The notes under the pieces: model-generated
The model's input: only the letters and a program-made list of their open reading frames with translations
Databases searched by the model: none
What the model was told of the DNA's origin: nothing
DNA from: Blastochloris viridis
GTDB taxonomy: Bacteria; Pseudomonadota; Alphaproteobacteria; UBA2136; UBA6156
Direction of reading: 5' to 3'
Assembly (NCBI GenBank): GCA_005768725.1
Contig: VAFM01000002.1
Location: 546,048-610,047 of the forward strand
Length of the DNA stretch: 64,000 nucleotides
Shown here: positions 23,427 to 64,000 of the stretch, piece after piece
How positions within the stretch are numbered: position 1 is the stretch's first letter
Layout: each line of letters opens with the position of its first letter
Program-made: the position numbers and the translations under genes

Positions 23427-23570
23427 GATAAAAATCCTTTTAATCGTCCCTCAAGAGGTGGGTCTGACCTTTAAGGAAGCTTGGCCGGAAAGGCAAGCTT
23501 TCTGGCAGTGCGTTCAATGATGCATGTGAAACATTGAACGGAAGTGACGCATTATAGCACTTATTGAATA

Positions 23571-24038
23571 TTAGGATTGATAGTGACTTATGCTTTCAAC
23601 AACGAAGTTGATATGGTCTTTGGGTGATATTTTTCGCTTGGCTGCAACAAGGTCCCCCTGGGGGCTGTAAATGAAAATATCACGCGAAAGACCCATATAA
23701 GTGCGCCCGTACATGCTCTTCTGCACCCAGGAATGAAACTGATTTGCAAGGATTTGCGCGTTATCGCTCAGTAAATCGAAGTTAAGACCTTCTTTTTGCT
23801 TGAATTTGACGAGAGTGGCGGGGGCATCGGGGCTGATGCCATAGGTGATTGCGTTCAGCTTGCTCAAAACGTCCTTATTATCCCGTATGGCACAGGCTTG
23901 CTCTGTACAGCCAGATGTCATGGCTTTCGGGTAAAAGTAAATAACTACAAACTTACCTAGCGTTTCTGCGATCTGTACAGGGGTGCCGTCTTGGTTGAGA
24001 AGCTCAAGATGAGGGATCGTGCGGGGAGCTTGCTGCAT
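23571..24038 (-). CDS. bcp: peroxiredoxin (Bcp / thiol peroxidase family, thioredoxin fold)
   Basis: FVVIYFYPKAMTSGCTEQAC peroxidatic-Cys motif; 155 aa. Lower GC than the upstream core genes. Confidence 0.8.
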   Translation of the reverse strand: MQQAPRTIPHLELLNQDGTPVQIAETLGKFVVIYFYPKAMTSGCTEQACAIRDNKDVLSKLNAITYGISPDAPATLVKFKQKEGLNFDLLSDNAQILANQFHSWVQKSMYGRTYMGLSRDIFIYSPQGDLVAAKRKISPKDHINFVVESISHYQS

Positions 24039-24186
24039 GGCGTGTCGTTCCTTTCCTTTGTCAGTGGGCAGATGCTAGGCATTGTCATGACCTCTGGCAA
24101 TCCCAAATGCGTCTGGCTGGCGTATAAAGGAGTGTAATGAGGTCGCCGAAGCAGTGTGTGACCTGAAATAGAAGGGGATAGGGATT

Positions 24187-24663
24187 GTGAAACAATCGAC
24201 AAAAGCGAGCGCTGAACGGCAGACAAATAAAGCGAGTCAGAGCGCCAAGAAGACTGTTGCAGATAAGAATGCAAAGGCGGATCTCGCAAAAGAAAATTCT
24301 AGCTTTCAAAAGAAAGCAAGCGTGACAGGATGGATTCAGGATGCCTCTTTGGAGACGTCTTTAGCATCTTTTGGATATGAGCCGAAGCCGGGTGAGCGTG
24401 AGGTTGAGTTTTCGGTCGCGATGCGCCGTCGCCAGGAAGAGGGGCGTGATTATGCTGAACTACGTGGCCGGGCTCTGATCCATGCCTCCGGAAACGTCCT
24501 GGCGCTCGCTGAGGCCAGCTACGTGGCGGAAATGGGGACGGATGAGAGTGAGGCCGTTTTGGTTCAGGGCATGTATCCATCCCTGCGCGACGCGCTCCAA
24601 TCGCTGCTGCAAATGGCTGGGCACACCCCGCCATTACCAGAATCTCTGGAAAATGCGGCCTAA
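24187..24663 (+). CDS. hypothetical protein (158 aa); Lys-rich N-terminus, no confident family
   Basis: ORF preceded by an aggggatagggattg RBS-like region; followed by a terminator. A weak SecB-like impression from the C-terminal half only. Confidence 0.4.
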   Translation: MKQSTKASAERQTNKASQSAKKTVADKNAKADLAKENSSFQKKASVTGWIQDASLETSLASFGYEPKPGEREVEFSVAMRRRQEEGRDYAELRGRALIHASGNVLALAEASYVAEMGTDESEAVLVQGMYPSLRDALQSLLQMAGHTPPLPESLENAA

Positions 24664-24805
24664 AATAGGTCGTATTTTTTTGCCATAGAGGGTGTCCAGG
24701 AGGAATTCTAGGTGATGCATATAGGCAATAATGTGTGTCTTGTGTGCTTTAGAAGAAAATCTTTAGATTCATGAAAACAACCGCCTAAACACTAGCCTAT
24801 GGTGA

Positions 24806-24834
24806 GAAAAAGCCCCTTATCGGGGCTTTAAACT
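24806..24834. terminator. bidirectional rho-independent terminator
   Basis: aaaaagccccttatcggggcttt between convergent genes. Confidence 0.75.
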
Positions 24835-24851
24835 GATAAATAAGGGATTTT

Positions 24852-25216: not shown

Positions 25217-26371
25217 ATGGCCTACCCTCTACGCCTCTTGATGAGCCAGCCGGCTTATGAAGCTGCTGTCGCAGGGCGCCACGCACAGGCTGTCAGGCTG
25301 GCTCAGGGGTTCAAGAAATATGGTTTTGACAGCTGTGGCAAGAGTGTGTCTAAAATACAGGCAATGCCAGTGGCAAAGAGAGGGAGTGTGTTTCACGTGC
25401 AACGGATGTTGAGTGAAGGTTTGAATCAGTTGATGCAGTTAAGGGAGGGTGCTTTATTGACGCATTCCCGCAACAATCGCCTTAAATGGAGCCATGTCTG
25501 CTTAGCAGGGACGGCTTTGGCTGTTTTTCAAGGGTTTTTAACGATTGGGCATGCTGAAGATAAGGAGTGTATCAACTTCTATACGGTCGGAGACAGCAAA
25601 TGTGAGCCGGCAACCAAGGCAACTGAGCCGTCTTCAAATGCTCCCACGCTGTTAAAGCCGACAACTGCGAAGAGCGATGACCAAAAAGTGGATGAGTACC
25701 TTGAAAACTATGGGAAACCGCCGCGGGAATTTGTTGAGTTTTATATGAACCCTACACCGGATAATGCCAAAAAGTGGGTGGAAGCCTACCAAGGGATCGT
25801 GCAGAAGAGTCAGGATCTGTCCAAGATGTGGGAAGATGCCGAGCGTCTCTACACTCAGCAGGGAGCAGAACCGGCATTGCGTCGTCCCGCAACGGTCGTA
25901 CCGGCAGTTACACCTCAACCGACTACGCACCCTCAACCTGCTGTCACGGTTCCGTCGGCTCAGGCTTCGCCACTGGGCAATTTTGGTGGTTTGAATGCGG
26001 TCCCCGTAGCAGCTCAAACCGGGGGAGTGATGCCTCAGGACCAGGGGCTGAAACTGACCTATTACTTCAGTCAGGTCTGCCCGTACTGTGCGCGTATGAC
26101 ACCTGAATTATCTGTATTAACAAATAATTATTCAGGTAAGTTAGAATTTACTTGCGTAGATGTGACGCCGTTCTCCGGTGCAACAGCACCCAACCCAGCC
26201 TATCTGCGTGACAAATTGGCATGCCAGTGGCGTTTGCCGGGAGAAGGAGAATTGCAGCGCGAAGGTGTGAACCAGACCCCAACGTTACTCGTACAACAGG
26301 GTGGCAAGGCACAGGTGAAACTTTCCGGTTACATGTCGCAGGAGCAACTCAAGCCGTACTTCGCCCGTTAG
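25217..26371 (+). CDS. periplasmic thioredoxin-fold protein with CPYC active site (DsbA/TrbB-like thiol:disulfide oxidoreductase); start uncertain (25217/25364/25406)
   Basis: C-terminal LTYYFSQVCPYCARMTPEL followed by a thioredoxin-like fold. Signal-like WSHVCLAGTALAVFQGFLTIGHA upstream. Pro/Thr-rich linker. Confidence 0.55.
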   Translation: MAYPLRLLMSQPAYEAAVAGRHAQAVRLAQGFKKYGFDSCGKSVSKIQAMPVAKRGSVFHVQRMLSEGLNQLMQLREGALLTHSRNNRLKWSHVCLAGTALAVFQGFLTIGHAEDKECINFYTVGDSKCEPATKATEPSSNAPTLLKPTTAKSDDQKVDEYLENYGKPPREFVEFYMNPTPDNAKKWVEAYQGIVQKSQDLSKMWEDAERLYTQQGAEPALRRPATVVPAVTPQPTTHPQPAVTVPSAQASPLGNFGGLNAVPVAAQTGGVMPQDQGLKLTYYFSQVCPYCARMTPELSVLTNNYSGKLEFTCVDVTPFSGATAPNPAYLRDKLACQWRLPGEGELQREGVNQTPTLLVQQGGKAQVKLSGYMSQEQLKPYFAR

Positions 26372-26502: not shown

Positions 26503-26832
26503 ATGAGTGAGATCAAGACCCAGGCGGTCAGCGCCAAGATCGGCGGCGAGACAGCTTTTGTGAAGGAGCGCCTTATCTGGGCGAGCCGTCCGATGGGCCT
26601 GCTCATTCTGGTTCTCTGGATTTTGCACCCGGCTACCGGTATCGGCTCGGACGCAGTGCACCTGGCTCTGATGGGCTTTCTGGCGGGGACGGCCTACGGG
26701 CTGGTTCTGTATGGCCGCAAGCTGCGTTCCTACCTGACCCTCAAGCCCGCCAGCCTGACCCAGACCCCCAACCGCGTGCCGTCTGAATACTACTGGGGTA
26801 GCATCGCGCAAGTGATGTACGACAACAGCTAA
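26503..26832 (+). CDS. small membrane protein (109 aa, 2-3 TM helices)
   Basis: aaggatatacccATG RBS; hydrophobic segments LLILVLWILHPA and LALMGFLAGTAYGLVLYG. Directly upstream of the T4CP-like ATPase. Confidence 0.5.
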   Translation: MSEIKTQAVSAKIGGETAFVKERLIWASRPMGLLILVLWILHPATGIGSDAVHLALMGFLAGTAYGLVLYGRKLRSYLTLKPASLTQTPNRVPSEYYWGSIAQVMYDNS

Positions 26833-26870: not shown

Positions 26871-28283
26871 ATGAGCCAGGATCTCTTCCTTCCGTCCGAT
26901 CTTCTCTCCCGTCACTGTCTGGGTATTGCTGCCACCGGGGGTGGTAAGTCCAATTTCCTGAACCTGATCCTCAAACAGCAGATGATGCGCGGAGGCGGGG
27001 TTATTCACGTCGACGGGAAGAACAACAAGGATGCCATTCGCGAATTCCTGACGCTGGCCGAGCAGCATAACCGCTGGCAGGACGTGCGGATCATCAATAT
27101 CGATGAAGCCTCTCTTAGTAATACCTATAACCCGCTGCTGCGTGGCGACGCGGAAGAGTTGACGACGCGTATCATGCTGCTGATCGGCAGTGGCGGCGAT
27201 TCCTTTTTCCGTTCGCAGGCCAGTAAGGGTCTGGGAGCCATTTCCGGCTTGGTGAAGCGTATGGGCGTCCCGTTCAGCTTTGCGGACCTCTCTGTGCTGA
27301 TGGGAAGCGAGGGGGCGCTGCGTTATCTGCTGCGGGAAGCACCGAAGGATACCCGCGAATACACCGATTTTAAGATGTTCTTTGACCAATTGCTGGAAGC
27401 GGACCGTCGTACGGGTGCGATGATCGTCAGCGAAAAGAAGCTTCAGCATACCTTTGGCGATATGCTTGGCCGCTTGGCGGCCTATACCCGTGGCCAGGCG
27501 CGCGACGTAGTAAACAGTTACAATCCGGAAGTGGATCTGCTGCAGGCGATTAAGGAAAACCTGCTGGTGTATGTGGCGTTGCCCATGCTCAGTAAGGCGG
27601 AAGTGGCCACCGACTTTGCCAAGATCTTCCTCTCCGACCTGCGTACCGCCGTCGGTCAGCTCCAGAACGTGCCGCCGGAGCAGCGTCCGAATCCGACCTT
27701 CCTCTGTCTGATGGACGAGTTCAGCAGCTACGCCATGCCTACCCTGGCGCCGCTGTTCGAGCAGGCGCGTTCGGCTAATATCTGTCTGTTCCCCTTTATC
27801 CAGACCGTCTCGTCGCTGTCGGATAAGGAGCGTGGCCTGAGTCCGGACTTTGCCCAGAAGATTATCGGTAACACATGGAATAAAATAAGTTTTGTGTTAA
27901 AAGACCCGGAATCGTGCGAGCAGATGAGCAAGATTGCCGGTCAGGCGCTGAAGGAGTTTGTCAGCAAGAGTGTAGGCGAAAACATTGGCTTTGCCTCCGG
28001 CACGCAGGATGCTTCGATGCTTTATACTGCCAACCGTGGGCGCAGTGTCAGTACGTCGACCCGTGTCGAGTACGATGCCGTGGCGCGCCCGGAAGACTTC
28101 AGTAACCTCAAGGTCGGGGAAGGCATCTATATGGGTCCCAGTGGGGTGATGAAGATCCGGGTTCCCTTAGTCAAGCTGGCCAAAAATGGCGAAGATATTG
28201 TTTTTCCGCGCTTCCGTATGACGCCGGTACCTGGCTTGGCGGTGGCTGAAAAATACCATATGTTCAGCGCCACAGGGGGTTAG
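26871..28283 (+). CDS. type IV coupling-protein-like (TraD/VirD4/TraG family) P-loop ATPase lacking an N-terminal membrane anchor
   Basis: Walker A GIAATGGGKSNFL at residue ~20; Walker B FLCLMDEFSSYA followed by a QTVSSL-type motif as in T4CP/FtsK-HerA ATPases; no TM helices; 470 aa. Confidence 0.55.
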   Translation: MSQDLFLPSDLLSRHCLGIAATGGGKSNFLNLILKQQMMRGGGVIHVDGKNNKDAIREFLTLAEQHNRWQDVRIINIDEASLSNTYNPLLRGDAEELTTRIMLLIGSGGDSFFRSQASKGLGAISGLVKRMGVPFSFADLSVLMGSEGALRYLLREAPKDTREYTDFKMFFDQLLEADRRTGAMIVSEKKLQHTFGDMLGRLAAYTRGQARDVVNSYNPEVDLLQAIKENLLVYVALPMLSKAEVATDFAKIFLSDLRTAVGQLQNVPPEQRPNPTFLCLMDEFSSYAMPTLAPLFEQARSANICLFPFIQTVSSLSDKERGLSPDFAQKIIGNTWNKISFVLKDPESCEQMSKIAGQALKEFVSKSVGENIGFASGTQDASMLYTANRGRSVSTSTRVEYDAVARPEDFSNLKVGEGIYMGPSGVMKIRVPLVKLAKNGEDIVFPRFRMTPVPGLAVAEKYHMFSATGG

Positions 28284-28321: not shown

Positions 28322-28603
28322 ATGATCGCGTACCTCGCGCAGTTGTATGTCAATGTTATTGAGCCGGGCTTGCGTATCTTCGCGATTATTGCCCTGATCA
28401 TGGCGGTGCTCTATGTGTTCAACCTGCTGCGTGGCGGTAAGGACGACGCCATTACCAAGCTGGTGAACGGTTTCTTCCGCCTGATCTATAAGACGGTGTG
28501 TTTGTTTGGAGTCCTGATGGTCAAGTTGATGCGCGGCTTCATTAAGCGTATGATGCTGGTGTTTGCGGTTATTCGCGACTTTTTTACATCGCGCGATTTG
28601 TAG
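28322..28603 (+). CDS. small membrane protein (93 aa)
   Basis: Two hydrophobic helices (IFAIIALIMAVLYVF; VCLFGVLMVKL); RBS aaggagag. Confidence 0.45.
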   Translation: MIAYLAQLYVNVIEPGLRIFAIIALIMAVLYVFNLLRGGKDDAITKLVNGFFRLIYKTVCLFGVLMVKLMRGFIKRMMLVFAVIRDFFTSRDL

Positions 28604-28767
28604 TTATTTTAATGAGATAGATGGTGATTGCGATTGTGTTTGTGTAAAAGAGTTGTCAAAAATCACGAGTGTTCAACTTATCACATAAGGTGCTATTTAA
28701 GTGCTGCATAAAGAGGCGGTGTACTTGCCTATATTATAAGGTGTCTATTTAATTGGGTCAGAACAGT

Positions 28768-28785
28768 AACAGGTTTTCACCTGTT
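28768..28785. promoter_or_regulatory. perfect 7-bp inverted repeat (AACAGGT-tttc-ACCTGTT), operator-like, upstream of the lipoprotein gene
   Basis: Seen directly in an AT-rich promoter region ~30 nt upstream of the ATG at 28815 and just before the aaggag RBS. Confidence 0.35.
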
Positions 28786-28814
28786 GCAGAGGATACCAAG
28801 AAGGAGCCCCGGAT

Positions 28815-29735
28815 ATGGGAAAGACAGGCACGGTACGCATCGGTCGTCGGTATGGCTGGCACTTAAGCGTTGCGGCGGTGGCGTTGGTCGGCGGCGGTTG
28901 CCAGTCGGCACCGGGTCCTTACGGCGGTTACCCGGCGTATCCGGCCTATGATTACAGCACGGCGCCCCGCCCGGCAGCACAGGCTCCCCAGCCAGCTGTT
29001 ACCGAGGTTCCTTACCAGTCTCCGGCGTATCAGGCGTTGGAAGGTGCGACGATGGAATTGAAAGAGCGCCTCGACCGCGTCGAAAAAGCCATGCTGCGTC
29101 TGGACCGCCGCATGCAACTGGTGGAGCGCAACGAATTATCCCGCATGAACGGCCGTACCTCGTCCTTAGCACCGGCGACAGGTTCTGATGCCGGTCAGGC
29201 TGTGTCCGTCAGCGCCAATGCCTCGGATGTAGATGAAGCCATGAAGGCGTTGGGCCTGAACGATGCCTCTGGCTACCGTCCGGTTGTCAGTCGTAACGAA
29301 ACGATTACCTCGGCTTTGCAAGCCGCACCGAGCCTGGCCTCGACCGATATCGGCGCCCCGCGCAGCGAGCCGGTGCGCATGGCCAGCCGTAACAGTCTGC
29401 CGTCTCTGGCCGATCCGGTCCGTCCCGCGGGGCGTGATCTAAAAGCGGGTCAGCAGGATGTCGCCATCTGGACCGTCCATTACGAGTCCGGCAAGGTCTG
29501 GCCGGACCGCACCCAGTTGCCCTCCAGCCGTGATGTGGTGGATGTACTGCGTGAGAACGGTAAGGCCAATATCTATGCCCGCGGCAAAAACGCCAGCGCG
29601 GTCGAGTTCCGTGACCGCGTCAAGGCCCTTAGCCGTTACCTGTCCAAGGTCAGCAGTCTGGAGACCGTGCCGATTGCCGCCATGGCCGCGCCGCACCTCG
29701 ATGACGAGACCATTGAGATTGTTGTGACACACTAG
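28815..29735 (+). CDS. probable lipoprotein (306 aa), Pro/Tyr-rich N-terminal region then coiled coil; hypothetical
   Basis: Signal plus LVGGGC lipobox-like motif; GPYGGYPAYPAYDYS low-complexity region; no recognised family. Confidence 0.5.
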   Translation: MGKTGTVRIGRRYGWHLSVAAVALVGGGCQSAPGPYGGYPAYPAYDYSTAPRPAAQAPQPAVTEVPYQSPAYQALEGATMELKERLDRVEKAMLRLDRRMQLVERNELSRMNGRTSSLAPATGSDAGQAVSVSANASDVDEAMKALGLNDASGYRPVVSRNETITSALQAAPSLASTDIGAPRSEPVRMASRNSLPSLADPVRPAGRDLKAGQQDVAIWTVHYESGKVWPDRTQLPSSRDVVDVLRENGKANIYARGKNASAVEFRDRVKALSRYLSKVSSLETVPIAAMAAPHLDDETIEIVVTH

Positions 29736-29911
29736 TTTCTTACGGAGAGCTGTTGGAGGCCCGCTACGCTTGAGGTCTCCGGCAAAACCCCTTAGGATGA
29801 GCGAACGTTCACCTACTTCGGTAGAGGAATGATACCTATGCAGCTCCGGCTGCAAACGTGCCGAGGAAGACTCCCCTTTCTCGCCTAGAACCAAAAGAAA
29901 GGCACCTGCTT

Positions 29912-30523
29912 ATGTCCGACGTCCCCACGTCTCCTATGTCCAATGGCTCCGGTTCCAATGCCGAAACCGCCAGCCTTGAAGCCGCTCTCGGCGCCGTGCT
30001 CAACAAGCACCTCGCCAAGGGTAACGCCCAGTTCCGTGCCCGATTGCTCAACCAGATGGTGCAGCTGGCCCGCCATGGTAATTTCGCCGAAACCTTTATC
30101 CGCACCACGCCAGAAGGCACCGATATGGTGAACTTTGCCCGTATGTGGGAATATGTTCTGGTGCAGGCTGACCGCCAAACCCGCGGTTATGTGGCCAAGA
30201 CCAGCCGTAACGAATTTGAACAGACCCGCAAGGATTTTGAAGACTGTGTCGATTTCATGGTCAGCAAACTCCGCAGCGCCAGCCAACGCCACAAGCTGGA
30301 TCTCTCTGGTACCAACTTTATCTCCCGCGTGGCTCAGCGTTACGGTATCGCCGACAAGGTCCGCAAGGCTCCCAGTCTGAGTGCCAAGCCGAGCGATGAA
30401 CAGGTTGACGCCTTTGCCCCGCAGGCAGCTGCACCCGTGCAGGCCGAAGAGGCTGCCCGCCCCGCGCGCGTTCCGGCCCAGCCGAAGGCCGCCACGGTGA
30501 TGCCGGACGTTGACGATCTCTAG
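29912..30523 (+). CDS. hypothetical protein (~203 aa)
   Basis: aaagaaagg RBS then ATG; soluble; Ala/Pro-rich C-terminal tail; terminator follows. Confidence 0.45.
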   Translation: MSDVPTSPMSNGSGSNAETASLEAALGAVLNKHLAKGNAQFRARLLNQMVQLARHGNFAETFIRTTPEGTDMVNFARMWEYVLVQADRQTRGYVAKTSRNEFEQTRKDFEDCVDFMVSKLRSASQRHKLDLSGTNFISRVAQRYGIADKVRKAPSLSAKPSDEQVDAFAPQAAAPVQAEEAARPARVPAQPKAATVMPDVDDL

Positions 30524-30553
30524 TGGGTGGTCGCTTACCGACAGCCCAAGCCC

Positions 30554-30582
30554 CCGCATCTGCGGGGGTTTTTGGTACGTTG
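30554..30582 (+). terminator. rho-independent terminator
   Basis: agcccccgcatctgcgggggttttt. Confidence 0.8.
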
Positions 30583-30689
30583 CGATGTCGCAGTGGCGTG
30601 CCACATGAAACATCAGAAGACGCGGGAGGACTGGTCAGACGCCCAAATGTACCGTAAGGTCTGGTTCAGTAACGAGAGAAGGAGCCCCC

Positions 30690-31028
30690 ATGGCTGGTAA
30701 AGATGGCATGTCGACGGTAAGCACCATCGTCGTTTTCGGTGTATTGATCGGTGTCTGTGTCTGGGGGTTGATGATCGCCTCCGCCCAAGGTGAGCGCCGC
30801 CTGGAACAGGCCTGCAAGCCGATCGAATATGCCACCCAGTTCCTCCATGAAATGGCCACAACCGTCTCTGGCCGCCAGCCGACCTGGAGTCTGTACGTCC
30901 AGCGTTACCTGATGACCGGCTGCTACTACGGTTTCAGCATTGTCTTCTCCGAAACGCTTGAGCAAAACCCCCTGAGCGGTGTGCCGGTCACTATTGAGGA
31001 TCAGGGTGTCGGCGGTATCCACCAATAA
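30690..31028 (+). CDS. small membrane protein (112 aa)
   Basis: RBS agaaggag; TM helix IVVFGVLIGVCVWGLMIASA. Confidence 0.45.
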   Translation: MAGKDGMSTVSTIVVFGVLIGVCVWGLMIASAQGERRLEQACKPIEYATQFLHEMATTVSGRQPTWSLYVQRYLMTGCYYGFSIVFSETLEQNPLSGVPVTIEDQGVGGIHQ

Positions 31029-49048: not shown

Positions 49049-49315
49049 ATGCAGATGCGTCCGGTACCCCGTAATATCGATAAACCGAACCGCACCCCGG
49101 AATACGCGGTCACGTTCCTGTTTGCCTATTACATGACGCTGTTCCTGTTCAGTAAAGCCTTGGTAGCGCTGCTGGTAGGCGCTATAGCAACCTACATCAT
49201 GTACAAGGTCACATTGGATAAACCGGAAGGTCTGGCCATGCGTCTCGCCTACCGTCATGTCAAATTCGGCAAAATGCGCCCGAGCCCCAAGCACGCCCCC
49301 CGTCTCGAAATCTGA
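49049..49315 (+). CDS. small inner-membrane protein, TraL/VirB3-like by size and position
   Basis: 88 aa with one or two TM helices (VTFLFAYYMTLFLFSKALVALLVGAIATYIMY); directly follows the pilin genes as traL does in F-like operons. Confidence 0.35.
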   Translation: MQMRPVPRNIDKPNRTPEYAVTFLFAYYMTLFLFSKALVALLVGAIATYIMYKVTLDKPEGLAMRLAYRHVKFGKMRPSPKHAPRLEI

Positions 49316-49452
49316 TTGAGCATCGCGGCTCAAGCGCGGCTTTGGTGCCACACGCAAAGCGCAGGCGGGAGGGTTGCTGCCTGTTTTCGCAACAGCCTAC
49401 TCCCCAACGCCTTCAAAAGCAGCTAGTCTGACGCGCAAGGAGAAGACCAAGA

Positions 49453-50115: not shown

Positions 50116-50136
50116 TTCTGTAAAGGAGATAACTCT

Positions 50137-50856: not shown

Positions 50857-50958
50857 TCGTTTTGACCGGAGTGCGGCGTGACAAAAACCCCGCGCTCCCT
50901 GCCGCTCTTGGCGGCTTTCCCCTTGGCAATCCGCCTTTTTCAGCCCTATATTCTCAGT

Positions 50959-54147: not shown

Positions 54148-54170
54148 GGTAAGGCTCTTGATGTTGGTTG

Positions 54171-54737
54171 TTATTTGTACTCGCACACCATCGTGGCACA
54201 GGTCGTCGTGTAAATGGGGTTGCACGTTTCGCAACCGTCATGCCAACCGGAGGATTTGTAGCCCGCGAAAACGGTACCCATATTGTTATATCCGGCCGGG
54301 CAACGGTTGCCGTACGACATATTGCTGGTGATTGTGGTCGTTCGCATGGAGCATACCTGAACCTTTTCGATGGTGGAGAGGCAACGGTCCTGATTCATCG
54401 CATAGATCAGGCCTTGGTCACCGCAGGCGATGAACTTGTTCAGAATGGCGCTGGAGTAGGGCGCAGCAAGGCAGCCTTCCGCGTCGGCCCCGTTAATGCC
54501 TGGCGCATACATACGTCCCTTGGCGGCGCATTTGGACGACTGGTTCAGCCGGATGGACACGGTTTGTGCCGCCATCTGGGTTTTGTTGAGGGAATTGGCG
54601 ATACCGGACCATTTTGTTTCCGTCTCAAGAGACTCGGTCACGGCGCGTTCCTGGGCTGCGGCGGCAGGGAGGTAAACGCCACAGGCAAGGCCAGCAAGGC
54701 TTGCGACGCAGAAAAGGGTTTTCGTGAAGAGACTCAT
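54171..54737 (-). CDS. secreted cysteine-rich protein, paralog B (~189 aa, 10 Cys)
   Basis: Signal peptide MSLFTKTLFCVASLAGLACGVYLPAAAA; same conserved Cys spacing (FIACG, RCPAGY, HDGCETCNPIYTTTC); 23-nt gap to paralog A. Confidence 0.65.
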   Translation of the reverse strand: MSLFTKTLFCVASLAGLACGVYLPAAAAQERAVTESLETETKWSGIANSLNKTQMAAQTVSIRLNQSSKCAAKGRMYAPGINGADAEGCLAAPYSSAILNKFIACGDQGLIYAMNQDRCLSTIEKVQVCSMRTTTITSNMSYGNRCPAGYNNMGTVFAGYKSSGWHDGCETCNPIYTTTCATMVCEYK

Positions 54738-54850
54738 GTGTACCTTTATAGGGATGAGGGGTGGGGTGTCTGACATAGCGTCCGGAACGACGAGATATCA
54801 GGCTGCAAAACGATTACATCTCAAAGAAGACAAACCCGACACCAAATTCG

Positions 54851-57251: not shown

Positions 57252-59177
57252 ATGCGTACACCTGCACCATTTTGGAACTATATGGAATGGAAACGTATTT
57301 CCGGGCGATCGGGTAAGGCCGTTGGAGCGGCTGTTTTGGCATTGCAAATCTGTGTTGGCAGCGTTTATGCGCAATTCGATGGAACCGGCGGCATTCCCGC
57401 GGCTGACCTGTATCTATCACCTCTGCCGGAAACAGGTCTTCGTGTTCCGCCGAGTGGAGCTATCAATATTACCCCAGCTTTAAATCCCGAAGAAGCGATG
57501 GGTGATCGAACTCCTGTTATGACCGGTGAAGCCGCAAAGGTAGGAGACGTGACGAATACGCTTGGTTGCGCTGGTATCGGTCAGGGTGAGTTTACCAGCG
57601 GTTTGTACAATATGCCGGAGACCTATCTGAAATTCCAGCAGGATGTGAACTCGACCCTCTCGAAGAACTTGCTCTCCCTCAACTTCGTCATGCCGCAAAC
57701 CTCGGCGCTGTTTGAGCAGTTGAACAATATCGGTAACCAGCGTTATGACCAGTTCCAGCGCGCCTGTAACGTCACTCAGCTTCAGCAGGATGCCAAACAG
57801 ACCTACATGCAGGCCTGTGTGGAAAAGCTGACGCCTGAGCGCAAAAAGCTGATCGAAGAAGACAATAACAAACGTCCTCAAAATGCGCGGATTCCCGAGG
57901 CACAGATCGGCCCGATGGCCTATGCCCAGGCGTGGGAAGTCTGTGGCAACCAGTACACGAGTAATACAACGGCATTGGACGTACGCAATACCAAGCTTAC
58001 GGATTTCTATACAAAAACACGTGAACTGGAACGTGTGAACGATGCTGTTGCACCGCTGCTGTGCCAACTGACCAACTCTCAGAAGGCGTCCGATGATATT
58101 GCTGGCTGCTGGAGTCAATTCCTGATTCCGCAAGTCCGCATCTGTCTTGGGAATGATCTGGAAGGCGGCTGCACCGATGGTAACTATGGCGTTAAAGAGC
58201 CGATTATCACGATGCAGCGTCTATTCGATACCATGCGCTTTGTTATGGAAGATGAAGTGATCGCACGTCGCGTTATCAGTTTTACCACCCAGTTGGATCA
58301 AAAAAATATAGGACCCTCTGCACGTCGCCTTGCAGCGGCAGAGGCCTCGCTGGCAATGAGCACAGCTACATTGTTCCGCGGTGTGAGTGGCACGACATCG
58401 ACGGGTTCAGATATTCCCTCCATGCCTCTTAATACAGTGCAGGATTATCAGCTTGGCTACCTCAGTTGTAAACAGAATGATATTCTTATTCCTTTGAAGG
58501 AATATCAGAACCGCATTAAAGAAAAAGCCGGATCGGGTGTCGAAATTAAGGATATAGAAGAGCTTTTAGAACCCGCCTACGAACAGGTGGTAAAGAGGAT
58601 GAAGCTGCCCAGTATGTCGGGTAAGAACAGTGGTGCAGCGGGCGCAGAATCGGGTGGTGGTGATGTTAATGATGAAAAGGATGTGAAGGCGGTAGGTGCT
58701 CTTCTCAAAACGGCTATTGGTTGTACGGCCAACCAGTCCATTCCGATTTTTGACCCGAATATCACTGCGGCTCTTCAAACCCAATGCAGTGCGCAAGACC
58801 GCTCCGCTTTCTATACCATGGCCGGTTACGATGTCGCCTTAACTGCTACGCGCGATGTCTACCGCTACACAGGCCTCAAGCTGAAGCAGGTCTATGCCCG
58901 CCTGCTGACGGAAGCGATGGTACCGGTCTCTGATACGACGAATACATCTGTCAGCCCGACCCTTAGCCCGGAACTGAACGCCAAGTTCGCCACGGTCGTG
59001 AAGGATGTCATGATTCCGTACGTGGATGCCCAAATCCAGCGTCTGGATGAACTGAACACCACGCGCGGTGTCTTTGGTCAGCGTGTCCGGGAAATTTATA
59101 ACAATAAGAGTGGATGTATGTCGCAGCCTGCAGGGTTCGTTCTGCCAAATGGCAGACCCGCGACATTTCGTCCGTAG
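57252..59177 (+). CDS. large secreted Cys-containing protein (641 aa), possible T4SS periplasmic component (TraH/TraN-like?); lower-GC gene
   Basis: Signal peptide GAAVLALQICVGSVYAQ; ~18 Cys; AT-richer codon usage than neighbours. Alternative start at 57282 (MEWKR). Confidence 0.45.
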   Translation: MRTPAPFWNYMEWKRISGRSGKAVGAAVLALQICVGSVYAQFDGTGGIPAADLYLSPLPETGLRVPPSGAINITPALNPEEAMGDRTPVMTGEAAKVGDVTNTLGCAGIGQGEFTSGLYNMPETYLKFQQDVNSTLSKNLLSLNFVMPQTSALFEQLNNIGNQRYDQFQRACNVTQLQQDAKQTYMQACVEKLTPERKKLIEEDNNKRPQNARIPEAQIGPMAYAQAWEVCGNQYTSNTTALDVRNTKLTDFYTKTRELERVNDAVAPLLCQLTNSQKASDDIAGCWSQFLIPQVRICLGNDLEGGCTDGNYGVKEPIITMQRLFDTMRFVMEDEVIARRVISFTTQLDQKNIGPSARRLAAAEASLAMSTATLFRGVSGTTSTGSDIPSMPLNTVQDYQLGYLSCKQNDILIPLKEYQNRIKEKAGSGVEIKDIEELLEPAYEQVVKRMKLPSMSGKNSGAAGAESGGGDVNDEKDVKAVGALLKTAIGCTANQSIPIFDPNITAALQTQCSAQDRSAFYTMAGYDVALTATRDVYRYTGLKLKQVYARLLTEAMVPVSDTTNTSVSPTLSPELNAKFATVVKDVMIPYVDAQIQRLDELNTTRGVFGQRVREIYNNKSGCMSQPAGFVLPNGRPATFRP

Positions 59178-59294: not shown

Positions 59295-61496
59295 GTGTCC
59301 GATATGCAGCATGTGATGGCGGGGGAGGGGCCGCAGATACTTCCGGTTCTCGCCGGCTGCTGGGATCTACGCCTAGGCTATCACCCGTCCCTGAAACAGC
59401 AATTGCCGATGCTGGCCGACCTTCCGGTGTTGGAATCGGTTGAGGCGCAGCAGTTGGCAGAGCTGGAGCTTCCCGTCGCGCTTGCAACCACCGGTCACCA
59501 CCTGATGAAGGATGCGGCTCTGCTTGCCGCTGCCATGCCGCAGGGGGGTATGGTCGAAGCGGCGGATGTCTATCCGTTGGCGCCGGTCTTTGTGCGCGAC
59601 CTCTGCGGTCGTCCCATCCATACCGGTCTTGTTCCGCTGCCTGCCGCACCGTCGGTACCCCTCTTTCCTACAGGTTGCCGTCATGTCCCGAAGGATCATC
59701 CGGCCTATGCGCATCTCGAAAGCCTGATCTGGCAGACGCTGCGCCGTATCGAATGCGCGCCGGTGCGTCCCGATGCCGCAGGGCTTGCAGGGCAGCCTGA
59801 ACTGAGTTTGCGGGCCGCCATTGCCCAACCGCAAGCGTATGCTTTCAAGCTTCGCCCGGACACGTTTTACGCCGATGGCTGGCGCTTGCCGGTGGTGCCG
59901 CGCGTGTTTGCCGTGCCGGTGCAGCCGGTGCAGGCGCAGGCAGCGGCCGACGAACTTCTGGCGCGCTGGCAGCAGCGTCCGGAAGGGCAGGATTACGAAG
60001 CCTTTTACGACGCCAACAATGGTGAGATCTGGTTTGAAGAGCTGTTCGAGCGCGGCTGTACGGTGATCCCGACCCTGGAGGCCTACAATGGCCGCTATCA
60101 TATCGGGGCCGATTACGTGGCGACGGCGGTCGATCCGGGCCGCGCTCTGCCGGGGTTGCATGAGGTTGTCGGGCGTGAGCCGTCGGAATATGCCGCAGGT
60201 ACGATTCTTGAAGTCAAAGCCCCGGGCTGGGTGACGGCGACCACGGTGCACAAGGCGCAGGTGGTTGTGAGTGATGGCAGTGCATTCGTTGCAGCCGATG
60301 CCCCGCTGCCGCAGTTGCCAGACTTGGCGCTGCCGCACGCGCGGGTGGGGGGCAAGGTGGGCGATGTCTGGCTGCCGACACATCCCGAACACTTTGCCGA
60401 ACCGGCCTTGTACGACTGGAACGAGATGGGGCATTTTGTCCAGATCTCAGGCCCGCTCTGGGATCCTCTCCATTATGTTTATACCAGCACGGCACCGCTT
60501 CTGCGGGCGCTGCGCAAACCGCACCCGGTGGTGGCAGGCGCCTATGTGCTGCCGGAATCCGTCAAGCTGCGCTTCCATCCGCTGGCGCAACTGACGTGGT
60601 ACGACGCCTACAACGAGCGGACCGCCCAGCAGCGCATGCAGGATCCGGCCCACCCCTTGTACGGCAGTGCCATCGACATGGTGCCGCTGATGCGCGAAGT
60701 GGCGCCCGCCGGGTATCACCGTCTGCCGTGGGGGTTGGAATATGAATTGGACCCAGCCCATCTGCCAGCGCTGCATCCGCGTCATCGTGCGGTGGTCTAT
60801 CCAGAAGTTTTGGCTGGTCGTCGCATGGGTATTGCCACATTAAGCGATGCCGACAGCTACCGTACGCACGACACGGTGGTAACCGAAGCGATGCGGGATG
60901 TATTGGCGCATGCGTGTACGGCTCCGTTTGAGGAAGCTGTTTGCGACATCCATGCCACACTGCTTCCTGCCGAATTGCTGGCGCAGCCGGAACCGCACAT
61001 GCGGGCCGTGCCGGTCTGGTTGCCTGAAATTTCAGCCAGCCATCTCGCGGTAAATATCAAGAGAATTTTCGCAGCACGGCGCTATCGGCAGGCGGTACAA
61101 GAGCAGTCGGTCCGCTGGGGACAGTCTGGTTTTCCGGCGGCCTTCTACCAATTCCGAGAGTCAGCGCTGGCTTGGCGCCGCTTGCGTTACCGCCTGTTTG
61201 GCAAGTATGCCTCGGTCTGGCAGCAGGCTGCGGCAGAAGGTTTGGATCTTACCGCGGCTGAACTTCTGGTGCCGGAGTCCGATCCGGTGCGTCATGCGCA
61301 GGTGCAGCACGCGCGTGCCAGCGGGCTGGGAGTGGTTGCAGAGGTGCCTCTCCAGAGGGCGGATGGTTTGCCTTCCTCTGCGGCACAGGGTAAGCTCACG
61401 CAAGCTGAGCGGCCTAAGCCCCCACGGGCGCTGGACAAGGCCTCGCACAAGGTGCGGCAGGGTCGCGCGCAAACCGATAACAACGGCATGGAATAA
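59295..61496 (+). CDS. large cytoplasmic hypothetical protein (733 aa); GTG start
   Basis: Long ORF with consistent codon usage; no recognisable motif; Trp/His-rich. Confidence 0.45.
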   Translation: MSDMQHVMAGEGPQILPVLAGCWDLRLGYHPSLKQQLPMLADLPVLESVEAQQLAELELPVALATTGHHLMKDAALLAAAMPQGGMVEAADVYPLAPVFVRDLCGRPIHTGLVPLPAAPSVPLFPTGCRHVPKDHPAYAHLESLIWQTLRRIECAPVRPDAAGLAGQPELSLRAAIAQPQAYAFKLRPDTFYADGWRLPVVPRVFAVPVQPVQAQAAADELLARWQQRPEGQDYEAFYDANNGEIWFEELFERGCTVIPTLEAYNGRYHIGADYVATAVDPGRALPGLHEVVGREPSEYAAGTILEVKAPGWVTATTVHKAQVVVSDGSAFVAADAPLPQLPDLALPHARVGGKVGDVWLPTHPEHFAEPALYDWNEMGHFVQISGPLWDPLHYVYTSTAPLLRALRKPHPVVAGAYVLPESVKLRFHPLAQLTWYDAYNERTAQQRMQDPAHPLYGSAIDMVPLMREVAPAGYHRLPWGLEYELDPAHLPALHPRHRAVVYPEVLAGRRMGIATLSDADSYRTHDTVVTEAMRDVLAHACTAPFEEAVCDIHATLLPAELLAQPEPHMRAVPVWLPEISASHLAVNIKRIFAARRYRQAVQEQSVRWGQSGFPAAFYQFRESALAWRRLRYRLFGKYASVWQQAAAEGLDLTAAELLVPESDPVRHAQVQHARASGLGVVAEVPLQRADGLPSSAAQGKLTQAERPKPPRALDKASHKVRQGRAQTDNNGME

Positions 61497-61502
61497 CCGA
61501 AG

Positions 61503-62954
61503 ATGGCGTCCGAAAACTCACCCGATTACATCGCCCGTCCGGGCGCCGGTGGCAAGCCGGAAGGTGGCACGTCGCAAGCCTCTGACGCACTGCAGCGTTT
61601 CCGCGCATTGCCGCCCAAGCTGCAGGGTGCCATTCTCATCGGTGCGCTGATTCTGGTGTTCTACGTCATTTCCACCCTGCGCGGCGGCGGTGCGTCTACG
61701 CAGCGCAGCGTTGTCAATCTGGGGCAGACCAATAACCGCACCGGCCAGGTCAGTGCGACTTTCACAGGTATCGAAACCGACCGTCCGGCCGTGATGCAGG
61801 CGGTGTTCGAGCAGAACCGTCGTGATATGGCCGAACTGCGTTCCAAGATCGAAAGCGATTTCAGCATCCGCGACAAAGCCCTGCAGGATGCTATCACCCA
61901 AAACCAGGAACTGCAGCGCCAAATGCAGCAGATGATGGGCGACTTTACCACCGAGCTGAAGAGCATTCAGGTGGAGCGCGCCCGCGATAACGAGCGTCTG
62001 GCTCAACTGGCCGACCAGCAACGCCAGTTGGAACTGAATGCGCCGGTCAACGGCGTTGGTCAGGTCGGCGGCATTACGCCGCAGCGCCGTGCCATCCAGC
62101 AGGTTGTGCTGGGCGGCGGTGGCGGTGGTGTGATGGGAGCTGTCCGCGCCCCTTTCGCGCAGGCGGGGACGGGCTCTAACAAGTCGGACTCAGCGGGTCA
62201 GGCTGTCCGTAACCCCGCTGAAAAGGCGGCGGAAGAGCGCTTACCATTCATTCCGCCGCTGGGCTTTGTCCGTGCAACCATGCTGAACGGTGTTGATGCG
62301 CTGGTCGGTGGAACCACGACACCAGCTCTGGCCCGCCTGTCGGGAACCTACAAAACCGCCATGAACAGCACGATCTCGCTGGATGGCTGTATCGCCATGG
62401 TCGAATTTACCGGTAATATTTCCACCGAGCGCGCCACGGGTAAGCCGGTCCGCATGACGTGTGTCTACCCAGACGGCGGCGCCGCGACCTACAGTCTCTC
62501 TGGGTACGCGGTCGATGCCGAGGACGGTATTATTGGAATTCCCGGCGTTCTATATGAAGGCGACCCGAGCCGTATCGCGGCCGCCATGCTGGCCGAGTTT
62601 GCCGCCGGTGTCGCCGGTATCGTGGAAGACAACACCGGCAACAGCGTCACCCGCGTGAATACCGATGGTACAACGTCTACGTTCGAACTGCCGAGCAGTG
62701 CTGACTGGGCCGAGCAGATTGTCGGCGGGTCCGGCAAGGTGATGGGTTCGCTGCGTGATTATCTCCAGAAACGTGCCGACCGCGTTCAGTCGTTCATCCG
62801 TCTGGATGCCACGCGCGAAATCAATCTGGTGATCCTGAACGGTACCGAACTGCGCAAGTCCGGCGAAGTCTGGAGCGCGCTGTTCGACGGCAATACCGAC
62901 AGCGGCCTGCCGCAATCCAATTTACCCGCCGAGACATCCGGCGCAACGCAATAA
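61503..62954 (+). CDS. TraB/VirB10-family T4SS protein (TrbI-like C-terminal domain)
   Basis: Cytoplasmic N-terminus, one TM (LQGAILIGALILVFYVISTL), coiled coil, Gly-rich linker, C-terminal ...VRMTCVYPDGGAATYSLSGYAVDAEDGIIGIPGVLYEG... consistent with the VirB10/TraB beta-barrel domain. Confidence 0.55.
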   Translation: MASENSPDYIARPGAGGKPEGGTSQASDALQRFRALPPKLQGAILIGALILVFYVISTLRGGGASTQRSVVNLGQTNNRTGQVSATFTGIETDRPAVMQAVFEQNRRDMAELRSKIESDFSIRDKALQDAITQNQELQRQMQQMMGDFTTELKSIQVERARDNERLAQLADQQRQLELNAPVNGVGQVGGITPQRRAIQQVVLGGGGGGVMGAVRAPFAQAGTGSNKSDSAGQAVRNPAEKAAEERLPFIPPLGFVRATMLNGVDALVGGTTTPALARLSGTYKTAMNSTISLDGCIAMVEFTGNISTERATGKPVRMTCVYPDGGAATYSLSGYAVDAEDGIIGIPGVLYEGDPSRIAAAMLAEFAAGVAGIVEDNTGNSVTRVNTDGTTSTFELPSSADWAEQIVGGSGKVMGSLRDYLQKRADRVQSFIRLDATREINLVILNGTELRKSGEVWSALFDGNTDSGLPQSNLPAETSGATQ

Positions 62955-62969
62955 GGGGGAAGACAGATC

Positions 62970-63425
62970 ATGAAAACCTACCGTCTACCTGTAGCACTTC
63001 TGGGTGTGGTCGCCATGCTGGGCGGCTGTAAGTACTATGGCAGCGCCCTTCCGCCGGAGTACCCGATGAGCATGGAAGATGCCCTGACCTCGGCCAACGA
63101 CCAGCGCGCCAGCGCCGGCGGCAGCCAGCGTCCGGTGGTGCGTAATCCTACCCGCCCGCGCGTCGAGCGCCCAAGCTACCTGCCGGAAAAGGAACTGGCA
63201 CTTGTCAGCCCGCCCAAAACCCTGCTGGTCTGGACCTACCCGCACGTCACCGACGATAATACGCGCGTGTTCGGTAACTGGAGCACCATCTTCCTGACCG
63301 ACCGCTACGAATGGGCCCGCCCGAGCAACGAACTGCCGAGCAACGAAGACGATGCTGGCACCGCAGCCGGTCGTCCGTCGCTGGGCATGGCGCCGCAGAA
63401 CGGCGCGGCCGCCCCCACGCCCTAA
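62970..63425 (+). CDS. small lipoprotein, TraV-like by size and position after the TraB-like gene
   Basis: RBS aagggggaag; signal plus LGGC lipobox; 151 aa; Pro-rich. Confidence 0.35.
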   Translation: MKTYRLPVALLGVVAMLGGCKYYGSALPPEYPMSMEDALTSANDQRASAGGSQRPVVRNPTRPRVERPSYLPEKELALVSPPKTLLVWTYPHVTDDNTRVFGNWSTIFLTDRYEWARPSNELPSNEDDAGTAAGRPSLGMAPQNGAAAPTP

Positions 63426-63486
63426 ACGCGTGTAAGGCAACTGGCACACAAACAAGAATATCGGCAAGAATAACGGCACACCACGT

Positions 63487-64000
63487 ATGGACCACAAAAA
63501 TACCTATACGCCGCCCCGCCCGGACCAGCTGGCCGAGCAACTGCCGTATTTCGAGTTTAATGAGGATGAGTCCTCGCAGTTCTACCGCTTCCACCTGCTG
63601 AAGGATGGTGGTTTGGGCATCTGCTGGAAATGCCCGGTTCCTGCAAGTTATTCGTACGATGACGGCTACGGCTCCACGACCAACGAATTCCGCACGTTCC
63701 TCGAAAGCATACCGACCGATTACGAAGCACAGATTTCGATCCTGTCGCACAACAACCTCGTCAAACCGCTGCAGAACTATCTGGAAGCCACCCCGAATCT
63801 GGAGCGTGCCCGTCTGCTGCGCCAGTCGCGCGCCGAAAAGATCCGCGACTCCGGCCATCGGGGCTATGCCACATCCGAGCGCGGGTTTACCCGTCTGCGT
63901 GAATCGTACATGGTCATCAGCCTGCGTTGCCCGGAAACCGTTGAACGCTATGGTCTTCTCAAGGGCGCGATCGAAATGACCTATCAGGCCCTGGCGTTGA
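63487..64000 (+). CDS. partial ORF at the window edge (5' part only); possibly the next T4SS component, e.g. the N-terminus of a TraC/VirB4-like ATPase
   Basis: Open reading frame running to the end of the window; no diagnostic motif within the available 171 aa. Confidence 0.3.
   Translation, partial: MDHKNTYTPPRPDQLAEQLPYFEFNEDESSQFYRFHLLKDGGLGICWKCPVPASYSYDDGYGSTTNEFRTFLESIPTDYEAQISILSHNNLVKPLQNYLEATPNLERARLLRQSRAEKIRDSGHRGYATSERGFTRLRESYMVISLRCPETVERYGLLKGAIEMTYQALAL

Follow-up and report, generated by a model that had tools for sequence, protein, structure and literature searches.

Does a locus that sets conjugation-type secretion genes beside a pilus machine belong to a mobile element or to the chromosome that carries it, and what would it transfer? 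We addressed this question for a 64,000-nt stretch of DNA deposited as Blastochloris viridis (assembly GCA_005768725.1, contig VAFM01000002.1, positions 546,048 to 610,047 of the forward strand; hereafter the window), in which genes for an F-like type IV secretion system (T4SS) and a secretin-based pilus lie beyond the housekeeping gene rph. An earlier sequence-only reading had taken this region for a putative acquired island, possibly a new variant of an integrative conjugative element (ICE), or, alternatively, for a repurposed secretion or contact system. Our analysis refutes the recently acquired island: the genes occupy the same locus in related genomes, their G+C content at third codon positions (GC3) is core-like, their synonymous divergence (dS) equals that of the flanks, and neither integrase, relaxase or tRNA genes nor attachment (att) repeats were found. 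In our view, the region probably represents a conjugation-type apparatus that an uncultured proteobacterial lineage has 'domesticated', fixed in its chromosome and passed on vertically, and whose substrate we infer. Its most likely function would be contact-dependent transfer of DNA or nucleoprotein, and the alternative of a repurposed secretion or contact system fits the evidence.

The cluster occupies the same chromosomal locus in related genomes

Gene calls were based on Pfam and NCBIfam scans of every plausible open reading frame (ORF) from 23.5 kb on. Genes past the window end were read from the Logan contig SRR5420275_7532 (84,962 bp; L004), which was completely identical to the window across all 11,031 overlapping nucleotides checked and reached 9.4 kb beyond it, so that ~73 kb were examined in all. 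The F-like T4SS and pilus genes form a cluster of ~45 kb, from ~25.2 kb to ~69.9 kb in window-equivalent coordinates, which is bordered by housekeeping genes on both sides. The left flank comprises gidA, gidB, parA, parB, a porin gene, LeuRS, holA, LppC, a hemN-like gene, rdgB, rph, bcp and yggT. At the far end, a TraV-like gene is followed by those for an 865-aa TraC/VirB4, an 872-aa protein and a 297-aa protein, and then by housekeeping sugar genes (glycosyltransferases, a WecA-type transferase and RmlA/RmlD-type genes). This places the far boundary, expected by the sequence-only reading beyond 64 kb, at ~69.9 kb, with neither an integrase nor direct repeats beside it. About 16 conserved cluster proteins had no match in Pfam or NCBIfam, and an Rfam scan of the window gave no matches at all.

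The gene at which conserved synteny had been said to end is the following:

22683-23426, minus strand: rph (RNase_PH match)

This claim did not hold, as bcp, a 158-aa gene and yggT follow rph before the cluster begins and the remaining region is itself syntenic in relatives. Relatives were sampled by an RNase PH anchor, one genome per species, and the middle and far parts of their clusters were recovered with the 704-aa lipoprotein, the ParB-like protein and TraC as queries (L057 is the same metagenome-assembled genome, MAG, as L006). The comparison at the same locus, which the sequence-only reading had itself named as a possible refutation, found the region next to rph-bcp-yggT in six relatives (L006/L057, L007, L008, L009, L012 and L013), whose RNase PH is 87%, 77%, 67%, 69%, 60% and 63% identical, respectively. 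Within the 10-kb flanks of these six loci, the gene order of the window, yggT, TraF-like and onward, was kept up to the 443-aa gene at 32661-33992; the gaps in this synteny were an unmatched coupling ATPase in L013 and an unmatched bcp in L009. At least 10 related MAGs had the cluster genes in the same order: L006/L057, L007, L008, L009, L012, L013, L058, L059, L061, L065/66 and L067, and in L059 the cluster end is followed by the same sugar-synthesis genes. The ~10 kb of supposedly unrelated cargo likewise turned out to be part of the conserved order: genes for a helicase, the 761-aa ParB-like protein, a 641-aa and a 733-aa protein are conserved in place in relatives, and just ~1.3 kb of this stretch (53.6-54.9 kb) is specific to this genome.

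In a more distant relative (L011, rph 62% identical), yggT-bcp-rph was present without the cluster beside yggT. Because of this genome, the cluster must have been gained or lost deeper in the clade, and its acquisition was likely ancient, dating to the base of the clade.

The records for the MAGs that carry the locus give implausible species names ('Blastochloris viridis', 'Pseudomonas fluorescens' and 'Pseudomonadaceae bacterium'), and their taxonomy is untrustworthy; by RNase PH, these MAGs are nearest to ones labelled Alphaproteobacteria or Proteobacteria bacterium. One protein has an identical counterpart in the NCBI MAG mislabelled 'Blastochloris viridis' (locus-tag prefix DI628), and the relatives include JAIXQG01, DIUO01/UBA6156, WGMN01, GCA_036128715 and GCA_964601735. 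The name 'UBA6156' occurs in one paper, which assigns it no lineage. Membership in Micavibrionales was considered but is not claimed, and no T4SS is reported in the Micavibrio genome paper.

Selection and composition at the locus

Eleven cluster genes compared with the nearest MAG by the Nei-Gojobori method showed ratios of nonsynonymous to synonymous divergence (dN/dS) of 0.015-0.081, the coupling ATPase having 0.015, at dS values of 0.69-1.40; five flanking genes showed dN/dS of 0.051-0.076 and dS of 0.55-1.84. The two sets are indistinguishable and indicate strong purifying selection, the ratios themselves being rough. Identity of the coupling ATPase was 98/92/92/88/61% in L006/L007/L008/L009/L012, making it more conserved than RNase PH in the first four genomes and about equally conserved in L012 (61% vs 60%).

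The compositional profile of the region points the same way. GC3 was 0.66-0.80 for cluster genes versus 0.68-0.77 for core genes, and the tetranucleotide distance from the core profile was only modestly raised over 28-72 kb. The AT-rich stretches noted in the sequence-only reading exist numerically but were misplaced, since the first trough (~19.5-28 kb, 5-10 points) begins ~4 kb before the cluster boundary and covers the housekeeping genes hemN-like, rdgB, rph, bcp and yggT as well as the TraF-like gene. Low GC characterises six genes at 20.7-26.4 kb (hemN-like, rdgB, rph, bcp, the 158-aa gene and TraF-like) and the gene for the 641-aa protein. Relatives show both troughs at the corresponding places, the first of them at 7-13 kb in L006, 7-12 kb in L007, 7-12 kb in L009 and 9-12 kb in L012. 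Being common to orthologous loci, the troughs are intrinsic to these genes and no mark of transfer. The genes of the first trough are also those most diverged from L006.

These data bear directly on whether the cluster is an old ICE or integrated plasmid that is still mobile through unrecognised integration and relaxase genes, or that was only recently immobilised. We consider this improbable. It is true that the closest relatives of the T4SS genes outside the lineage lie on plasmids (pOS401 and Pseudomonas and Variovorax megaplasmids), that the cluster-free locus of L011 implies gain or loss at some point, and that pOS401 is typed 'non-mobilizable' despite its machinery, so that the relaxases of this family may go unrecognised. 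However, the cluster sits at the same site, with both flanks the same, across species with 60-87% identical RNase PH, and its dS equal to that of the flanks, its strong purifying selection and its core-like GC3 all speak against such an element, as do ParB-like and 733-aa genes for which a search of plasmids returned no homologue. The signatures of integration are missing as well. The sequence-only reading had seen no integrase, relaxase or tRNA, which was borne out both in the window and past the far cluster end: ARAGORN found no tRNA in the window, no recombinase or integrase domain was present in ORFs from 23.5 to 64 kb or in the genes between the window end and the far housekeeping genes, and no direct repeats of at least 13 bp link 19-26.6 kb with 68.8-73.4 kb. 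Recent mobility of the cluster is largely refuted.

Secretion genes of F-like type and a coupling-type ATPase

Relatives outside the lineage were sought among 72,556 plasmids, and family hidden Markov models built from the clade were run on one of them, pOS401 (AP026971, Comamonadaceae bacterium OS-4; 42 kb read). The best plasmid match of TraC was on pOS401 (25% identity over 95% of the protein), followed by F-type TraC genes. The secretion-related genes of the cluster are, in order:

25217..26371, plus strand: first cluster gene, TraF-like protein fused to a thioredoxin domain (Pfam TraF 34.7 bits, cutoff 23; Thioredoxin_2 match)
26503..26832, plus strand: 109-aa protein with two transmembrane (TM) segments (TM scan), beside the ATPase in all relatives
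26871..28283, plus strand: coupling-protein-like ATPase of the type IV coupling protein (T4CP) family, 470 aa (TraG-D_C 38.4 bits, cutoff 22; TrwB_AAD_bind 24.8 bits, cutoff 20.5)
28322..31028, plus strand: four genes, for a 93-aa TM protein, a probable 306-aa lipoprotein, a 221-aa cytoplasmic protein and a 112-aa TM protein, syntenic in 5-6 relatives
31083..32495, minus strand: 470-aa protein with two TM helices at its N-terminus plus a conserved cytoplasmic domain, conserved in relatives
48286-48696, plus strand: TrbC/VirB2 pilin (PF04956 40.4 bits)
48608-49036, plus strand: second VirB2/TrbC-type pilin in tandem (paralogy by tblastn)
49049-49315, plus strand: TraL-like (weak match, E ~1e-3, below family cutoff)
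49453-50115, plus strand: TraE-like (weak match, E ~1e-3, below family cutoff)
50137-50856, plus strand: TraK-like by position, signal peptide and homology to an equally placed pOS401 ORF, without a family match
50878-51723, plus strand: SLT lytic transglycosylase (SLT 29.4 bits)
61503-62954, plus strand: TraB/VirB10-like (TrbI 38.7 bits)
62970-63425, plus strand: TraV-like lipoprotein by position, lipobox LGGC and a pOS401 homologue (5e-8), without a family match
63487..64000, plus strand: 5' part, inside the window, of the gene for TraC/VirB4 (865 aa; Pfam TraC_F_IV 35.7 bits, cutoff 28.1)

Most parts of the gene content listed in the sequence-only reading were recovered by Pfam or NCBIfam, the assignments being weaker for TraL and TraE, which stayed below cutoff, and for the TraK- and TraV-like proteins, which were placed by position and homology to pOS401. 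A secretin-based pilus machine does share this locus with an F-like T4SS and a coupling-type ATPase. In the block 49049..51723, the gene order is shared by pOS401 ORFs, with matches at 3e-8, 7e-13 and 5e-17, and identity to L057 is 90-96%; for the TraK-like protein, both a PDB profile search and an hhalign comparison with one plasmid TraK were without a match. The TraB/VirB10-like protein was best matched by the F-type TraB model PRK13729 (E=1.4e-16, below cutoff) and has a pOS401 homologue at 2e-38. TraC/VirB4 likewise scored best with F-type TraC (TIGR02746, 200.9 bits, cutoff 567; VirB4_CagE, 68.5). The proposed likeness to mating-pair formation type G (MPF_G) systems fell away, as it comes down to one tfc model, TIGR03744, at 78 bits (cutoff 520), beaten by the F-type model, and no further model of the MPF_G tfc set (TIGR03744-TIGR03759) matched in the cluster. 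By sequence, this minimal T4SS appears nearest to the F-type.

The TraF-like protein carries a CPYC motif, is syntenic in L006-L013 and has a pOS401 homologue (E=2.8e-16). In the 470-aa ATPase, a Walker A motif (GGGKS) is visible, and the combination of P-loop NTPase, all-alpha DNA-binding domain and TraG-D_C that marks a T4CP was present. Its best NCBIfam model was SXT_TraD (98 bits), its best PDB match IcmO/DotL (1.9e-14), and Pseudomonas and Variovorax megaplasmids encode proteins, labelled 'T4SS DNA-binding domain', to which it is 35% identical. A TM scan found no TM segment in the same polypeptide, and the adjacent 109-aa protein with its two TM segments is, judging from sequence and position, probably the detached membrane anchor. 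No Pfam or NCBIfam match was obtained for the four genes at 28322..31028, and the divergently encoded 470-aa protein at 31083..32495 had neither a family nor a PDB match; a distant homologue of the latter heads the pOS401 cluster (E=7e-6).

Past the window end, the cluster closes with the 872-aa and the 297-aa protein (L004 13262-16868, window-equivalent 66231-69837), for neither of which a family match was found. The former is bitopic, with a ~550-residue cytoplasmic region rich in Pro, Ala and Glu, one TM helix and a small C-terminal domain. The latter is cytoplasmic and 90% identical in L059, where TraC is 80% identical.

A pilus machine of MSHA- and T2SS-like type

Between the coupling-type ATPase and the T4SS pilins lies the second half of the apparatus:

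32661..33992, plus strand: exported 443-aa protein encoded ahead of the secretin; weak TcpQ/PilL-type domain (Pfam TcpQ E=8e-4, below cutoff; signal peptide)
34009..36015, plus strand: lipoprotein secretin (Secretin domain 72 bits; lipobox LASC)
36098-38017, plus strand: extension ATPase of the GspE/PilB family (T2SSE 227.6 bits; best NCBIfam PilB/GspE)
38024-39112, plus strand: platform protein of the GspF family (T2SSF 67.7 bits; best NCBIfam GspF)
39146..42920, plus strand: four membrane or periplasmic proteins (496, 209, 199 and 320 aa) with TM or signal sequences, syntenic in L057 and L058
42935-44089, plus strand: type IV prepilin, ~367 aa (N_methyl motif)
44106..44459, plus strand: stand-alone prepilin-peptidase N-terminal domain A24_N, 117 aa (PF06750 92.8 bits; no peptidase domain follows)
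44582-46696, plus strand: lipoprotein, 704 aa (lipobox; no family match)
46696-48237, plus strand: lipoprotein, 513 aa (lipobox; no family match)

The region had been likened to a type IVb pilus with a pilL-V cluster of the R64/PAPI-1 type. This affinity is not supported: the secretin fits MshL best (121.9 bits) and scored 20.5 bits with the R64 PilN model TIGR02520 (cutoff 287.65), the prepilin has a short leader of 8 residues (MNLKSSKG, followed by FTLFE) and a GspG-like N-terminus, and the peptidase is represented by A24_N only. From these sequence matches, the machine is like those of MSHA, the type II secretion system (T2SS) and type IVa (T4a) pili. A six-frame motif scan found no second prepilin in the 73 kb.

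The A24_N gene, for a Cys-motif protein, was present in every relative examined and encodes 110-159 aa there (L057 9520-9882, L058 9559-9891, L065 1627-2106), and since the stand-alone form is the same there, it is not a truncation. Either a matching aspartic peptidase must be encoded elsewhere, or the A24_N domain must act alone. The four proteins at 39146..42920 had no family match, the 496-aa one having a weak pOS401 homologue, and are probably components of pilus alignment or assembly. The description of the two large lipoproteins as 'PilL-like' is defensible at the domain level only. Both carry lipoboxes, and they share homology in their C-terminal domains (hhalign 99.6%), which are also related to the TcpQ-like region of 32661-33992 (95.6% and 81.6%), but no family matched. 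Just 25 homologues of the 704-aa lipoprotein were found among 5.8 billion proteins.

DNA-handling and lineage-specific proteins within the cluster

Between the lytic transglycosylase and TraB lie the genes formerly regarded as cargo:

51612..53558, plus strand: UvrD/PcrA-family superfamily 1 (SF1) helicase (UvrD-helicase domain match)
53596..54776, minus strand: two overlapping small ORFs (212 and 201 aa) with signal peptides, specific to this genome
54956..57241, plus strand: predicted 761-aa DNA-binding protein of ParB/Noc/KorB type (profile match to PDB 1vz0, 1.6e-6)
57252..59177, plus strand: exported Cys-rich 641-aa protein (signal peptide), its gene being the second AT-rich patch
59295..61496, plus strand: 733-aa cytoplasmic protein with no solved structural analogue

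The helicase is syntenic in L057, L058, L059, L065 and L067, and its pOS401 homologue (E=5e-40) comes directly after the coupling-like ATPase. In L057, L058 and L059, the gap between the helicase and the ParB-like gene measures ~150 nt, and no orthologues of the two minus-strand ORFs, which also lack a family match, were found in these three.

The 761-aa protein comprises an N-terminal part of ~300 helical residues with a sigma-70-region-4-like helix-turn-helix (HTH), a centre predicted to form a ParB/Noc/KorB-type CTPase domain followed by an HTH, and a long C-terminal coiled coil. A single-sequence Pfam scan overlooked the ParB domain, while a 59-member profile of the family matched Spo0J/ParB, Noc and KorB through the central part. 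In the family alignment, the GERR motif (G427-E-R-R430) is invariant. The AlphaFold2 model had confident domains, and Foldseek assigned its centre to ParB/Noc/KorB at a probability of 1.0. The protein hence has the ParB N-terminal domain with the GxxRxxA/GERR motif and the HTH behind it, both terminal extensions being atypical. At least 138 homologues were found, all of them metagenomic or from MAGs and some named ParB-like at source. The window encodes a second protein of the ParB family, the canonical chromosomal ParB beside parA (9292-10431, 379 aa, three Pfam ParB domains).

The 641-aa protein evolves fast (24-37% identity to its orthologues, whose GC is likewise low), and of its 13 Cys residues, 11 are conserved. 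These conserved Cys residues would fit the CPYC thioredoxin fused to the TraF-like protein; by analogy only, the protein recalls the Cys-rich surface and periplasmic proteins of F-type systems. For the 733-aa protein, a novel fold is predicted by a confident model, with a disordered, basic C-terminus. Its family comprises 37 representatives at E<=1e-30 among 1.84 billion proteins, and an exhaustive HMMER search of these 1.84 billion representatives returned clade members only, apart from matches of ~50 residues confined to a single small segment.

Paralogues of the 733-aa protein lie away from the cluster or inverted in it (L068 5130-12028; L069 1310-6783; L065 14677-20404, minus strand). Each is encoded directly 3' of a giant exported protein of 1146-1560 aa without a Pfam match, and the giants are related to one another. 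The pair looks like a recurrent two-gene module.

What the apparatus may transfer

In the mechanism that we propose, the pilus would make or tighten contact with a target cell and the T4SS would provide the channel across the envelope. The coupling ATPase would feed this channel with a substrate, probably DNA or nucleoprotein unwound by the dedicated helicase, and the ParB-like protein might mark the transferred DNA or regulate genes. Two findings favour DNA or nucleoprotein: the helicase and the ParB-type clamp have been retained at this locus no less tightly than the channel genes, and in pOS401, the plasmid relative, the helicase adjoins the coupling ATPase. We also counted the TrwB DNA-binding-domain signature of the coupling ATPase in favour of DNA handling. 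A PcrA-type helicase is required for transfer of ICEBs1. The DNA substrate, the target cell and a nicking enzyme are parts of the proposed apparatus that we infer.

Several observations weigh against a fixed apparatus for DNA transfer. The main objection is that the 73 kb read yielded neither a match to a relaxase family of Pfam or NCBIfam nor an oriT, which would leave DNA transfer without its defining enzyme at this locus. A relaxase could be encoded at another site in the genome or hide among the unannotated cluster proteins, for which a profile search against PDB sequences came back empty. Furthermore, the Pfam and NCBIfam scans did not detect TraH, TraN, TraU, TraW, TrbC or TraG/VirB6, and for the first five of these, family hidden Markov models run on the annotated plasmid L063 gave no match either. 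The T4SS scores stay under curated cutoffs except those for Pfam TraF, TrbC, TrbI, TraC_F_IV, P-loop_TraG and TraG-D_C. The relatives are all MAGs, and dS is near saturation (0.55-1.8), which makes the dN/dS ratios approximate. Finally, the 733-aa protein, paralogues of which also occur outside the cluster, may not be a component of the machine.

Without a recognisable relaxase, delivery of protein effectors by the same fixed machine into prey bacteria or eukaryotic hosts, with the helicase and the ParB-like protein as regulators or hitch-hikers, stays a serious rival, if an unlikely one. Dot/Icm and the killing T4SS of Xanthomonas are precedents for the translocation of protein effectors, DotL/IcmO is the best solved relative of the coupling ATPase, and the cluster is conserved across the lineage like a determinant of lifestyle. 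It also encodes an exported, fast-evolving Cys-rich protein and, with the 733-aa protein, one that has a disordered basic C-terminus. In contrast, effector-translocating T4SSs are not known to keep a dedicated UvrD-type helicase and a ParB-type CTPase in their loci, whereas both are as conserved here as the channel genes, and neither recognisable effector/immunity pairs nor anything specific emerged from PADLOC and Pfam.

The composition of the pilus half raises another alternative, namely that it is a DNA-uptake (competence-type) pilus and that the locus mediates import or bidirectional exchange of DNA. A secretin, an extension ATPase and a helicase are present, and Com models are matched as well, those of ComGC, ComGD and ComGE by the N-terminus of the pilin and that of ComGB by the platform protein. 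These Com matches are weak and beaten by the GspG and GspF models, however, homologues of ComEA, ComEC and DprA are absent from the locus, and F-type T4SS genes are not known to take part in uptake, the Helicobacter uptake system ComB being of VirB type. We give uptake a slim chance and consider it, like a still-mobile ICE, less likely than a fixed apparatus for contact-dependent transfer of DNA or nucleoprotein.

This preferred account can be carried further, although only tentatively. The locus may represent an undescribed class of host-owned T4SS in which an F-derived channel and an MSHA/T2SS-like pilus move DNA or nucleoprotein without a canonical relaxase, while helicase, ParB-type CTP clamp and novel-fold proteins process the DNA, and which serves the whole clade as an essential lifestyle machine, for instance in obligate interaction between cells; in this strong form, the proposal seems to us rather unlikely.

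A non-coding stretch in the left flank

Outside the cluster, a 700-nt non-coding stretch (20007-20708; GC 0.46) lies between a BON-domain gene and the hemN-like gene. It contains 11 TGTG[GA]A[TA] boxes and a core of ~55 nt (about 20177-20231) that is kept in L006, L007 and L009, and it coincides with a local minimum of cumulative GC skew, with gidA-gidB-parA-parB 10 kb upstream. The stretch may have a regulatory role or be an origin of replication. Exact DnaA boxes were not enriched in it, which counts against reading the 20.0-20.7 kb gap as oriC.

Comparison with known systems

To our knowledge, few host-fixed conjugation systems have been recognised, namely Dot/Icm, the vir homologue of Rickettsiales, Trw of Bartonella, ComB of Helicobacter and the killing T4SS of Xanthomonadales, and each of them gave new biology. 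If our reading is correct, an F-derived example would be added to these host-domesticated T4SSs, with an unusual set of parts: the secretin pilus attached to it, the split coupling protein, the helicase and the ParB-type CTPase within the locus, and ~16 unassigned conserved proteins. For genome scanning, the lesson is that T4SS genes together with patchy GC do not prove an island. No published description of the locus was found in a small number of searches of the searchable literature, which were limited by the lack of a clade name. As a candidate of another kind, an anti-phage defence island was rejected: PADLOC gave just a generic GajB-type helicase (E=1e-11) and a similarity to a mad8-type ATPase, with no partner proteins.

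Dot/Icm (type IVB) offers a precedent for a lineage-fixed conjugation system without a relaxase, and DotL is the best PDB relative of the coupling ATPase described here. It differs in that its channel genes are of the MPF_I type and that its locus has no helicase or ParB genes and no secretin pilus. The pilL-V clusters of R64, PAPI-1 and ICEclc share with the present one a lipoprotein secretin, ATPase, platform protein, large prepilin and TcpQ/PilL-type domains beside a T4SS, whereas here the secretin fits MshL, the leader is short and of T4a/T2SS type, A24_N stands alone and neither MPF_G nor MPF_I has support.

The gonococcal genetic island is a further parallel, a chromosomal F-like T4SS employed by its host together with partitioning-type proteins and a TraD-type coupling protein. 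Secretion of single-stranded DNA by its T4SS depends on partitioning-type proteins encoded on the island. Unlike the present cluster, it is variably present and horizontally acquired, has a MOB_H relaxase and dif-like ends, and has no associated secretin pilus cluster.

F-type systems (F, pED208, SXT/R391) appear to share the core order L-E-K-(...)-B-V-C with our cluster, in which TraC and TraB score best with F-type models, a TraF-family domain is present and the coupling ATPase scores best with SXT_TraD. In contrast to these systems, the equivalog scores are all far under their cutoffs here, TraH, TraN, TraU, TraW, TrbC and TraG were undetected, and the locus is chromosomally fixed and has no recognisable relaxase. 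In addition, the coupling ATPase is split from its anchor, the pilins match the VirB2/TrbC family, and ~10 kb of helicase, ParB-like and lineage-specific genes separate traK from traB.

The closest mobile relative of the cluster, by sequence comparison, appears to be pOS401. Differences from our cluster are its location on a plasmid, its single contiguous block from pilin to TraC, its helicase directly after the coupling ATPase and identities of 23-40%, and no homologue of the secretin, the ParB-like or the 733-aa protein was found in the 42 kb read. Both have the pilin and TraL, E, K, B, V and C homologues, a TraF-like protein, a T2SSE-family ATPase (with two GspE-type ATPases in pOS401), a GspL-like protein, a prepilin and the 2-TM protein, and in both a small 2-TM ORF precedes a TM-less 470-aa coupling ATPase and a UvrD-like helicase is present. 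This 305-kb plasmid is annotated almost wholly as hypothetical and carries a complete-looking relative of the cluster at 674-38600. As it is typed 'non-mobilizable' despite its transfer genes, unannotated transfer genes on such megaplasmids suggest that a whole subfamily of T4SSs may escape current typing schemes.

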